Origin: a virus
Reading direction: 5' to 3' (one strand)
Virus record (IMG/VR): IMGVR_UViG_3300039412_000320
DNA length: 64,000 bases
Below the pieces are notes generated by a model. The model made no database searches, was not told the origin of the DNA, and saw only the letters and a list, made by a program, of their open reading frames with translations. Shown here in pieces: positions 27,283 to 27,440 of this stretch. Both the position numbers and the translations under genes were made by a program. Within the stretch, counting starts at the first letter, position 1. Every line of letters begins with the position of its first letter.

Positions 27283-27299
27283 ATAATACCACAGAAAGT
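27283..27299 (-). promoter_or_regulatory. Extended -10 promoter (minus strand reads TGTGGTATTATATAAGTGG)
   Basis: Reverse complement of ccacttatataataccaca. Near-identical to the plus-strand copy 135 bp away. Drives leftward genes starting at 27070. Confidence 0.5.
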
Positions 27300-27423
27300 A
27301 GGAAATTTGGAGTTTATTTTGAAAGGGGGTACGTCGGCTTCCTCTGCCAGCTAAAGCAGGCAGTCCCCGCCGACGCAAAATCTATGGCCGGAATAAAAAA
27401 TTCTGCAATATTTCGACTACCGG

Positions 27424-27440
27424 TGGTATTATATGAGTGA
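27424..27440 (+). promoter_or_regulatory. Extended -10 promoter TGGTATTATATGAGTGA
   Basis: TGnTATTAT. Followed by ~290 nt of structured untranslated sequence. Confidence 0.5.

Follow-up and report, generated by a model that had tools for sequence, protein, structure and literature searches.

A 64-kb stretch of viral DNA (the window; IMG/VR record IMGVR_UViG_3300039412_000320), analyzed at the sequence level together with related viral contigs (given L-numbers here), carries two arrays of tRNA genes whose expression is probably controlled by attenuation. Each array lies downstream of a predicted promoter belonging to a small family of near-identical motifs, and between the promoter and the first tRNA gene there is a structured RNA segment, a short open reading frame (ORF), and a candidate terminator with a competing antiterminator. 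The codons of each short ORF correspond to the tRNAs encoded in the array that follows. Taken as a whole, this explanation, which joins a promoter family with tRNA-array attenuators, is judged likely. The motif very probably represents a family of sigma70-type promoters, and the leaders can be expected, with reasonable confidence, to be functional tRNA-sensing attenuators. It also seems fairly likely that, in this clade of huge phages, every tRNA array is under the control of a ribosome-mediated attenuator, the leader serving as a "codon sampler" that would allow transcription only when one of the sampled tRNAs is limiting.

The window has a GC content of 51% and 27 tRNA genes, which lie in two arrays on the plus strand. 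The same sequence (99.98% identical) is carried by a 338,351-bp contig and by several peat and soil samples, and these copies of the same genome are uninformative for conservation because they are so nearly identical. Comparisons drew on a relative with about 91% identity in coding DNA, represented by two IMG/VR contigs of 237 and 317 kb, on further relatives with 62-66% protein identity, and on L167, a relative of 62% GC. No close GenBank phage match to the window was returned by the searches made (megablast of the region; blastn of both leaders; 50,697 GenBank phages).

Leader reading frames and their tRNA arrays

In the proposed mechanism, a transcript approaching the first tRNA gene would contain, in order, a structured 5' segment, a leader ORF of 28-31 codons, an antiterminator, and an intrinsic terminator. 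The first 20 or so codons of the ORF would be drawn from the amino acids, and from the individual codons, that are read by the downstream tRNAs. When all of the sampled aminoacyl-tRNAs are plentiful, a ribosome would traverse the ORF and cover the antiterminator strand, the terminator would form, and the tRNA genes would remain untranscribed. Shortage of any one of them would instead stall the ribosome upstream, so that the antiterminator would form and RNA polymerase would enter the array. Viral tRNAs would be made on demand, with a net negative feedback on tRNA supply. Scarcity might be caused by a mismatch in codon usage, by host shut-off, or by defenses that cleave tRNAs.

The elements of the first tRNA operon (array type A1) are:
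27440 to 27553, plus strand: conserved and structured 5' part of the leader, 98.8% identical in the relative versus about 91% for coding DNA; its hairpin CCGGGGGG/CCCCCCGG is kept in L133
27554 to 28985, plus strand: a 1.43-kb insertion, absent from L026, L132 and L133, that divides the 5' leader from the attenuator
28993 to 29079, plus strand: leader ORF 1, MKNLSSNSLSYSSSLLLSGLVLPDGWDG (begins MKNLSSNSLSYSSSLLLS), ahead of Tyr/Leu/Ser tRNAs
29044 to 29112, plus strand: predicted antiterminator 1, in which the 3' part of the ORF (29044-29071) pairs with 29083-29112, including the 5' arm of the terminator
29103 to 29132, plus strand: predicted terminator 1, GAGGCGGCTAACAAGCCGCCTT plus a T-run, ending about 3 nt before tRNA-Tyr and found by a terminator scan
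29133 to 30692, plus strand: tRNA array 1, with one Tyr, four Leu and three Ser tRNAs and an HNH endonuclease gene at 29459-30085 (PHROG E 6e-46)

The elements of the second tRNA operon (array type A2) are:
48303 to 48479, plus strand: structured 5' leader 2, about 178 nt, folding with z = -4.75; three hairpins with GNRA loops at 48395-48470; no Rfam match
48480 to 48575, plus strand: leader ORF 2, MRNRKPNPMQWQPKRHFSRPSFGGLPFAGVA (begins MRNRKPNPMQWQPKRHF), ahead of His/Arg/Asn/Lys/Phe/Met/Pro/Gln/Trp tRNAs
48543 to 48552, plus strand: predicted antiterminator strand 2, TTCGGTGGGC, inside the ORF and perfectly complementary to the terminator's 5' arm (GCCCACCGAA, 48602-48611)
48602 to 48639, plus strand: predicted terminator 2, GCCCACCGAAC-TCAAG-GTTCTGTGGGC followed by TTTTTTATTTT, at -15.5 kcal/mol
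48613 to 48990, minus strand: HNH endonuclease gene between the terminator and tRNA-His (PHROG E 4e-5); it is an insertion, absent in L100
49026 to 55447, plus strand: tRNA array 2, with His, five Arg, two Asn, two Lys, Phe, three Met, three Pro, Gln and Trp tRNAs and interspersed ORFs

The case for sensing begins with the composition of the ORFs. Among the 27 codons that follow the start codon of leader ORF 1, 16 specify Tyr, Leu or Ser (P = 2e-6), and the anticodons of array 1 in the window are covered 8/8. Residues 2-17 of leader ORF 2 all belong to the nine-amino-acid set of array 2, with each member present, and the codons used include CGA, AGG, CGG and CGC for Arg and CCA, CCG and CCT for Pro. 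Each of the 15 distinct anticodons of array 2 has a cognate codon in this ORF, which is the only one among 522 small ATG ORFs of the window to cover all 15. Random ORFs attain full coverage at frequencies of 4.6e-5 for A2 (91 in 2 million), 1.2e-3 for A1, and 5.6e-3 for A5, an array type present in other phages.

Similar matches are evident wherever leaders and arrays could be paired. In all 11 such pairs, the leader is most enriched for the amino acids of its own array, and 10 of the 11 leaders contain a cognate codon for every distinct anticodon (15/15, 8/8, 12/12 and so on). Own-array amino acids account for 16-19 of the 27-33 codons in A1 leaders (P ~1e-6 to 1e-7) and for 21-22 of 30 codons in A2 leaders (P ~1e-5), and the A1 leader of L026 uses all six Leu codons and five of the six Ser codons. 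The Ile/Thr/Gln arrays (A3) of L135 and L134 have the leaders MMNTPQTRITTTTQ... and MNTQRQTRITTRTQQTT..., and a Trp/His/Arg/Asn/Lys array in L136 (A4) has the leader MISRKPNTIARKGASQWRNNRHF.... In one relative, the third array encodes Val, Gly, Ala, Asp, Glu and Cys tRNAs, with transfer-messenger RNA (tmRNA) after them. A leader rich in these six amino acids was predicted before the sequence was read, and MNMKTAITNPVDLIEAVAAVCEGGDTSPSGGLG (begins MNMKTAITNPVDLIEAVAAVCEGGD) was found. Another phage with the same array type (A5) has the leader MNMATHITLGDIEAVGIAEAAVVCEGGD.... Furthermore, a blind scan for the small ORF that best covers the anticodons of each array, conducted upstream of that array, returned the same ORFs.

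The ways in which these ORFs have changed are also informative. The four versions of the A1 leader ORF (window, L026, L132 and L133) differ in length by in-frame insertions and deletions only (-6/+3, -9/+3 and +12 nt). Codons 2-17 of the A2 ORFs of the window, L100 and L167, which span 51% and 62% GC, differ only by synonymous changes and by one in-frame Asn codon in L167. In-frame length changes together with sensor codons that change only synonymously constitute an evolutionary signature that would fit translation of the leader ORFs.

Intrinsic terminators, with stems of -12 to -22 kcal/mol and a T-run, are predicted in 12 of 12 leaders, each separated from the stop codon by 23-30 nt. Compensatory changes are present in the terminator stems, including a GC-to-CG pair in terminator 1 of L133. 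The antiterminator duplexes predicted for the window reach -24.2 kcal/mol in A1 and -27.3 kcal/mol in A2, and no shuffled sequence is as good in either case (0/500 each). When the R2:R3 duplex is compared in this way in the relatives as well, the numbers of shuffles (of 500) at least as strong are 0, 0, 0 and 6 for A1, where pairing beats all 500 in three of four genomes, 0, 10 and 3 for A2, and 3 and 5 for A5. Both A5 leaders combine a terminator with a GCCTTCGGG/CCCGAAGGC antiterminator. The terminator of L100 differs in sequence yet retains its pairing to the ORF strand, and 8 nt separate its end from tRNA-His. In L167, the 5' leader is divergent, and terminator and antiterminator show covariation. 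In folding models of A1, free RNA or RNA with a ribosome at codon 10 adopts the antiterminator, and RNA in which the ORF is masked adopts the terminator. Finally, about 3-14 nt separate the end of the T-run from the first tRNA in A1, in the A2 operon of L100, and in L136. Because this proximity leaves no room for another promoter, the array would be transcribed only by read-through.

The RNA ahead of the ORFs appears structured as well. In L026, L132 and L133, a single leader of about 265 nt extends without interruption from the promoter to tRNA-Tyr and the Leu and Ser tRNAs directly behind it, and the uninterrupted leader of L026 (268 nt) folds with z = -3.3. Compensatory stem changes are found in L100 for 5' leader 2. 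Tandem hairpins with GNRA loops (mostly GAAA) are located between promoter and leader ORF in the window (48395-48470), in L134 (1270-1330) and in L135 (8450-8510). Those of the window are each followed by ACCAGTTT(T), and one of their stems flips compensatorily in L100.

Several additional observations concern the leaders and arrays. Leader peptides of three array types (window 29062-29079; L133, L134, L135 and L136) end in DGW(D/E)(G/Y)-stop, which is duplicated in L133. GGGTGG, which encodes the G-W pair, also forms an inner antiterminator helix with CCACC, and thus a constraint at the RNA level can explain this conservation; either the RNA or the peptide, or the two together, could be under constraint. 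A nucleotide scan of viral and metagenome contigs for DGWDG-stop produced just copies of the known leaders and chance matches. The arrays of the lineage partition the amino acids into Tyr/Leu/Ser, His/Arg/Asn/Lys/Phe/Met/Pro/Gln/Trp, and Val/Gly/Ala/Asp/Glu/Cys, and no Ile or Thr tRNAs have been seen so far in the lineage of the window. Array 1 consists of exactly the three bacterial tRNA identities of class II (long variable arm), namely Tyr, Leu and Ser. Genes for tRNAs with a CTA (amber-reading) anticodon are present in L134 (267-341) and L135 (7049-7125). Another HNH gene (49382-49798; PHROG E 2e-29) lies in or next to array 2. The ORFs of the insertion in operon 1 (27748-28002, 28162-28338, 28406-28681 on the minus strand, and 28793-28996) have no Pfam or PHROG matches. 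By eye, the last of these contains an HNH-like string, and its stop codon overlaps the ATG of leader ORF 1.

The promoter motif and its copies

The original prediction described a divergent pair of extended -10 promoters at 27283-27440 and a genome-wide family to which both belong, probably strong, early promoters read by the sigma70 of the host. The recurrence of the motif was borne out by counting, since exact TGGTATTAT is found five times versus 0.30 expected and none of 100 shuffles reaches five. The 16-mer TGGTATTATRTRAGTG occurs three times in 128 kb (both strands), compared to about 1e-4 expected by arithmetic from 14 fixed and two twofold-degenerate positions. A position matrix gives the five family sites 44-55 bits and the next-best window position 11 bits, a separation that is partly circular because the matrix was built from 10 family sites that include those five. 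The family consists of 27424 (plus), 27291 (minus), 48287 (plus), 42190 (plus) and 15014 (minus), with 33664 (plus) as a variant:
27384 to 27439, plus strand: P27424, with an ATGGCCG box, A-tract AATAAAAAATTC at 27392-27403, TGG at 27424-27426, TATTAT at 27427-27432, and ATGAGTG at 27433-27439
48251 to 48302, plus strand: P48287, with an ATGGCCG box, an A-tract with TCC at 48258-48269, TGGTATTAT at 48287-48295, and GTAAGTG at 48296-48302
27275 to 27320, minus strand: P27291, with A-tract AAAATAAACTCC at 27309-27320, TGGTATTAT at 27283-27291, and ATAAGTGG at 27275-27282
42162 to 42214, plus strand: P42190, TGGTATACTGAGAGTGGAGG, with a Shine-Dalgarno sequence at the predicted mRNA 5' end, ahead of the gene 42215-42844; 100% conserved in L123
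14991 to 15042, minus strand: P15014, TGGTATACTGAGAGTGGAGGG, 12 nt ahead of the ATG of the gene 14694-14990; core conserved in L128
33664 to 33680, plus strand: P33664 variant, TGGTATTAT, with the ATG (33678) of a NUDIX gene 6 nt after the -10 hexamer

Most details of the original prediction survive with small corrections. The copy at 27424 is present (tggtattatatgagtga/TGGTATTATATGAGTGA), those at 48287 and 42190 were placed correctly, and the remaining one exists at 33664 rather than 33665. The minus-strand copy is also real, in that the 19-mer tgtggtattatataagtgg/TGTGGTATTATATAAGTGG is the reverse complement of 27275-27293. Its TGGTATTAT core occupies 27283-27291, and the end coordinate of 27299 was 6 nt too far. 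The two copies do diverge, with the T's of their TGG elements 133 bp apart instead of 135 bp. An upstream tract proposed about 15-20 bp ahead of two copies holds for 48287, where AAAAAAATCCCC (48258-48269) ends 18 nt before TGG. It does not hold for 42190, where the literal AAAAATCCC ends 9 nt before TGG and the positional equivalent is GAATAATCC (42162-42170). A relaxed search adds 42190 (plus) and 15014 (minus), both TGGTATACTGAGAGTGGAGG, to the exact matches. The latter, a near twin of the former, had gone unmentioned, as had a copy at 33298 (plus). This last copy was rejected as a family member and probably arose by chance, because it lies inside an 89-aa gene and its TG is CC in a relative.

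When aligned on the hexamer, the five sites share an A-tract at about -44 to -37, TCC near -36, TGG followed by TATTAT or TATACT, and RWRAGTG at the predicted start. The invariant hexamer positions are T-12, A-11 and T-7, and TGG precedes the hexamer at the five strong sites and at 33664, where a T-tract replaces the A-tract. These promoters would depend little on a -35 element; recognition would proceed through the extended -10 (TG, one base, then TATTAT or TATACT) and the A-rich, UP-like tract. The transcription start would fall in the conserved AGTG, roughly 7-9 nt past the -10 hexamer. Two subclasses can be distinguished. In one, TGGTATACT-GAGAGTGGAGG lies 10-12 nt ahead of the start codon of a protein gene, so close that the mRNA would begin at the ribosome-binding site. 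In the other, TGGTATTAT-RTRAGTG precedes a structured noncoding RNA, which is tmRNA in a relative and the tRNA-operon leaders in the window. For the 33664 variant, a leaderless mRNA is probable given that the NUDIX ATG is only 6 nt from the hexamer and that a Shine-Dalgarno sequence is lacking.

Placement and conservation both argue for promoters of the sigma70 type, and the original prediction was thus supported as to the kind of element. The five strong sites and 33664 each fall in an intergenic gap, oriented toward the gene or RNA that follows. P27424 and the first 113 transcribed nucleotides are 98.8% identical over 170 nt in the relative versus about 91% for coding DNA. From 27384 on, P27424 is 100% identical in L026/L001, and it is conserved with a few changes in L132 and L133. 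Likewise, P42190 is identical over 65 nt in L123, the core of P15014 is identical in L128, P33664 differs by one change in L001/L123, and P48287 is conserved in the relative L100. In L076/L164, TGGTATTATGTAAGTG lies directly ahead of a tmRNA gene (Rfam RF00023, 124 bits), and the tmRNA 5' end in L076, taken as a proxy for the start position, is 9 nt after the -10 hexamer. From this tmRNA promoter, the start of P27424 is predicted at about 27438-27441.

Homologous promoters of tRNA operons and tmRNA in L134, L135, L136, L167 and L166 have TTGACA or TTGAAT, a spacer of N16-18, and TATTAT, TATTGT or TACTAT, with an A-tract ahead and without TG. The tmRNA promoter of one relative is TTGACA-N16-TATTAT. 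Such an exchange, at homologous sites, between a -35 element combined with a -10 element and an extended -10 element would be expected under recognition by a member of the sigma70 family. In three homologues (L133, L164-8140 and L167), TG is lost and the hexamer is kept, and of these L167 has the -35-like TTGAAT. A canonical TTGACA/TATAAT scan over 20-35 kb did not find more sites than in shuffles, and it missed the motif family because the family has no -35 element. P27424 and P48287 are assigned as the predicted promoters of the two tRNA arrays.

Some related arrangements were observed elsewhere. In L164 (7932-8160), the third tRNA operon has a tandem arrangement, with a TGGTATAATGTAAGTG promoter, about 200 nt of structured RNA, and a second promoter, ACTACCGACAGTATTATATAGAAG, just before the leader ORF. 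A huge phage of 24% GC, L130 (LR756500; 35772-42369, minus strand), has its own repeated promoter-like family, ...TTTATCTATTAACCTT TGTTATTAT ATTTATA, with at least six copies that share the TGnTATTATAT core. A scan of viral contigs for TGGTATTATRTRAGTG produced mostly single chance matches. Several contigs of about 16 kb from sample 3300045988 (L003, L009, L010, L023, L051, L075 and L079) carry TGGTATTATRTRAGTG about 100 nt from one end, and they appear to be an unrelated family of small phages.

The divergent pair does not stand as a unit, since P27291, its leader, and the intervening hairpin have no counterpart in the relatives. The gene map has a leftward block at 13388-27070 and rightward units from 27440 on, which makes 27070-27748 a divergent control region. 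Within it are:
27332 to 27376, no strand assigned: compound hairpin, with a 7-bp outer stem (CGTCGGC/GCCGACG) and a 5-bp inner stem (CTGCC/GGCAG)
27071 to 27274, minus strand: 5' leader of about 200-209 nt, with a minimum free energy of -70.2, z = -3.4, and no Rfam match

P27291 heads the leftward operon, whose first ORF (26834-27070) encodes a 78-aa zinc-ribbon protein. In the relatives, the homologue of this gene sits within an operon, and homology ends at 27108. Because P27291 has no counterpart there, the back-to-back layout is best seen as a lineage-specific rearrangement. The hairpin between the two promoters is present as predicted, with slightly narrower limits than the 27330-27377 first given, and it was set aside as a significant structure because its DNA fold is unexceptional (z = -1.1). 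A different hairpin, resembling a terminator, precedes the P27424 homologue in relatives. The minus-strand leader was considered as a third attenuator and rejected, as its 13-codon ORF, MLVIATDLPVILT, has no Shine-Dalgarno sequence, no terminator is present, and no tRNAs follow.

Alternative explanations and points of doubt

For the promoters, the foremost alternative is that the phage itself supplies the sigma factor or RNA polymerase that reads the motifs, in place of the housekeeping sigma factor of the host. Such an agent might account for the conservation of positions beyond the sigma70 consensus (RTRAGTG at the start, and TATTAT instead of TATAAT) and for the separate repeated TGTTATTATATTTAT family in a very distant huge phage (24% GC). 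In addition, homologues of sigma70 have been reported to be encoded by huge phages (PMC7162821). No domain of a sigma factor or RNA polymerase was found among the 85 ORFs of the window, which samples 64 kb of about 338 kb, and a candidate in L135 was rejected as merely a weak helix-turn-helix. This alternative is nonetheless considered rather unlikely, because T-12, A-11, T-7 and TG at -15/-14 are exactly the determinants used by the sigma70 family, and because relatives place TTGACA-N16-18-TATTAT at homologous sites. Moreover, a phage homologue of sigma70 would still mean the same kind of promoter. There is very little probability that the copies are chance or selfish repeats devoid of promoter function. 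The copy at 33298 is intragenic and not conserved, and the 16-mer has many single chance matches in unrelated viral contigs, but the enrichment, placement, orientation and conservation of the family, together with the tmRNA 5' end, are not expected of such repeats.

For the leaders, the short ORFs might not be sensors. The RNAs could be independent small-RNA genes or insulators, the tRNAs could be produced by constitutive read-through or in some other way, and something else could underlie the codon match. The 5' leaders have a strong structure (z = -3.3 to -4.75) like that of stable small RNAs, the terminator folds in every modeled state in some families, and some ORFs are missing a good Shine-Dalgarno sequence. 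Even so, this explanation is regarded as improbable, given that coverage of anticodons by codons is full in 10/11 pairs, that peptide composition follows array content over five array types, one of them predicted beforehand, that length changes are in frame and sensor codons vary only synonymously, and that the terminator abuts the first tRNA. Alternatively, the ORFs might sense tRNA supply by another route, such as precursor protection or processing that depends on translation, Rho-dependent polarity, or a functional peptide, for instance one acting through the DGW(D/E)(G/Y) C terminus. This C terminus is conserved in families A1, A3 and A4, and the antiterminators of A3 and A4 are weak. The classical terminator/antiterminator geometry, with 23-30 nt from stop codon to terminator in 12/12 leaders, makes such routes quite doubtful, and the GGGTGG/CCACC helix means that a constraint on the RNA can account for the C terminus.

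A number of observations weigh against the attenuation model itself. The evidence throughout consists of inference from sequence, and this applies to the start sites, the acting sigma factor, translation of the ORFs, and both the existence and the direction of regulation. The first two leader ORFs were spotted post hoc by eye, so that the third array offers the only true prediction. Few independent lineages are represented, with about nine genomes in one clade. The antiterminator is weak in the Ile/Thr/Gln (A3) and L136 (A4) families, where 56-92 of 500 shuffles are as good, and the Shine-Dalgarno sequence is poor in some leader ORFs (L134 and L135) and good in others. The outer antiterminator helix of A1 still folds when only the footprint of a ribosome at the stop codon is masked, and hence the attenuation model needs kinetic coupling. 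A simple terminator scan missed the A2 terminator of the window because of one internal mismatch. Also, the TTA and TCA codons of the A1 leader in the window have no cognate tRNA in their own array. Furthermore, the 1.43-kb insertion puts P27424 1.55 kb from its attenuator, and the HNH gene separates the A2 terminator from tRNA-His. Both disruptions make present-day function less certain in the genome of the window than in its relatives.

Genomic setting and comparison with known systems

The window is part of a huge phage. An 810-aa protein (30761-33193, minus strand) contains the shoulder and repeat domains of major vault protein. Over 5,900 homologues of it are found at E<1e-20, and the contigs that carry them reach 894 kb. 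This vault-like protein ties the window to huge uncultured phages and serves as a marker of a large group of them. Homing endonucleases are numerous in the window (Pfam: five HNH, two NUMOD3, one GIY-YIG and one EndoVII), and a ClpB-like AAA+ ATPase gene (17357-19843, minus strand) is split by an intein with a LAGLIDADG domain. Other large ORFs encode a protein of 2,025 aa with a nucleotidyltransferase domain (6857-12934) and a 737-aa collagen-repeat protein with internal DNA repeats (21371-23584, minus strand). Shine-Dalgarno sequences of the GGAGG type are common in the window. Among distant relatives, LR756500 and LR756501 have no tRNAs in the stretches inspected.

Proposed reasons for phages to carry tRNA genes include compensation for codon usage, replacement of degraded host tRNAs, and escape from defenses that cleave tRNAs. 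To our knowledge, the regulation of phage tRNAs has so far been argued almost wholly from gene content. If the attenuation model is correct, a readout of stalling at codons read by the phage's own tRNAs would provide direct evidence that the arrays respond to shortages of specific tRNAs. In addition, tRNA genes would join amino acid and synthetase genes under feedback by translational attenuation. The elements are about 140 nt in length and have mutable parts (start codon, sensor codons, and the R2, R3 and R4 strands), and they could be adapted as compact sensors of tRNA availability. The promoter family offers a usable promoter model for an uncultivated clade of huge phages.

The promoters are ordinary in kind, consisting of an extended -10 element and a UP-like tract. 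Sigma70 promoters with an extended -10 (TGnTATAAT) and UP elements include the stable-RNA promoters of the E. coli rrnB P1 type and the early promoters of phage T4. A UP element is an A/T-rich tract, located between about -38 and -60, with which the alpha C-terminal domain makes contact. The phage family resembles these promoters in having TG one base before the hexamer, T-12, A-11 and T-7, and a weak or absent -35 element. Its A-tract at about -44 to -37 would correspond to the proximal UP subsite, and it would likewise be used for stable RNAs (tRNA and tmRNA). It differs in its hexamer (TATTAT or TATACT) and in the additional conserved RTRAGTG and TCC near -36. The tRNA cluster of T4 is also similar in having a homing endonuclease insert (segB in T4, HNH here) and neighboring small stable RNAs. 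However, the T4 cluster lacks a leader ORF that matches its tRNAs (the best covers 5/8 anticodons) and has protein genes directly upstream.

Searches of Rfam revealed no leader-family or T-box match, with only tRNAs detected in the window (whole window at the gathering score; 26900-29200 and 48200-49050 at E<=5) and only tRNAs and tmRNA in the relatives at E<=5. In T-boxes, which contain no ORF, a specifier codon and the T-box sequence make direct contact with uncharged tRNA. The phage leaders would share with T-boxes a tie to the state of specific tRNAs and a choice between terminator and antiterminator, whereas sensing by the phage leaders would run through a translating ribosome. No description of leader-peptide control of tRNA genes was found in the literature searched, including papers on huge phages and phage G.

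The closest parallels are the leader-peptide attenuators of the trp, his, leu, thr, ilvGMEDA and pheA operons and of the pheST synthetase operon. Like these, the phage leaders have an ORF rich in regulatory codons, a predicted intrinsic terminator downstream, and a predicted, mutually exclusive antiterminator formed from the 3' region of the ORF, and sensing of multiple amino acids has precedent in the ilv and thr leaders. The differences are that the phage leaders have no single repeated codon and instead sample each codon family of up to 15 array tRNAs, that the system is encoded by a phage, and that a long structured RNA precedes the ORF. In addition, the controlled genes would be tRNA genes and not genes for enzymes that make or charge amino acids. 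With tRNAs as the downstream genes, the phage leaders do not belong to any described leader family, and they would constitute a variant of attenuation.

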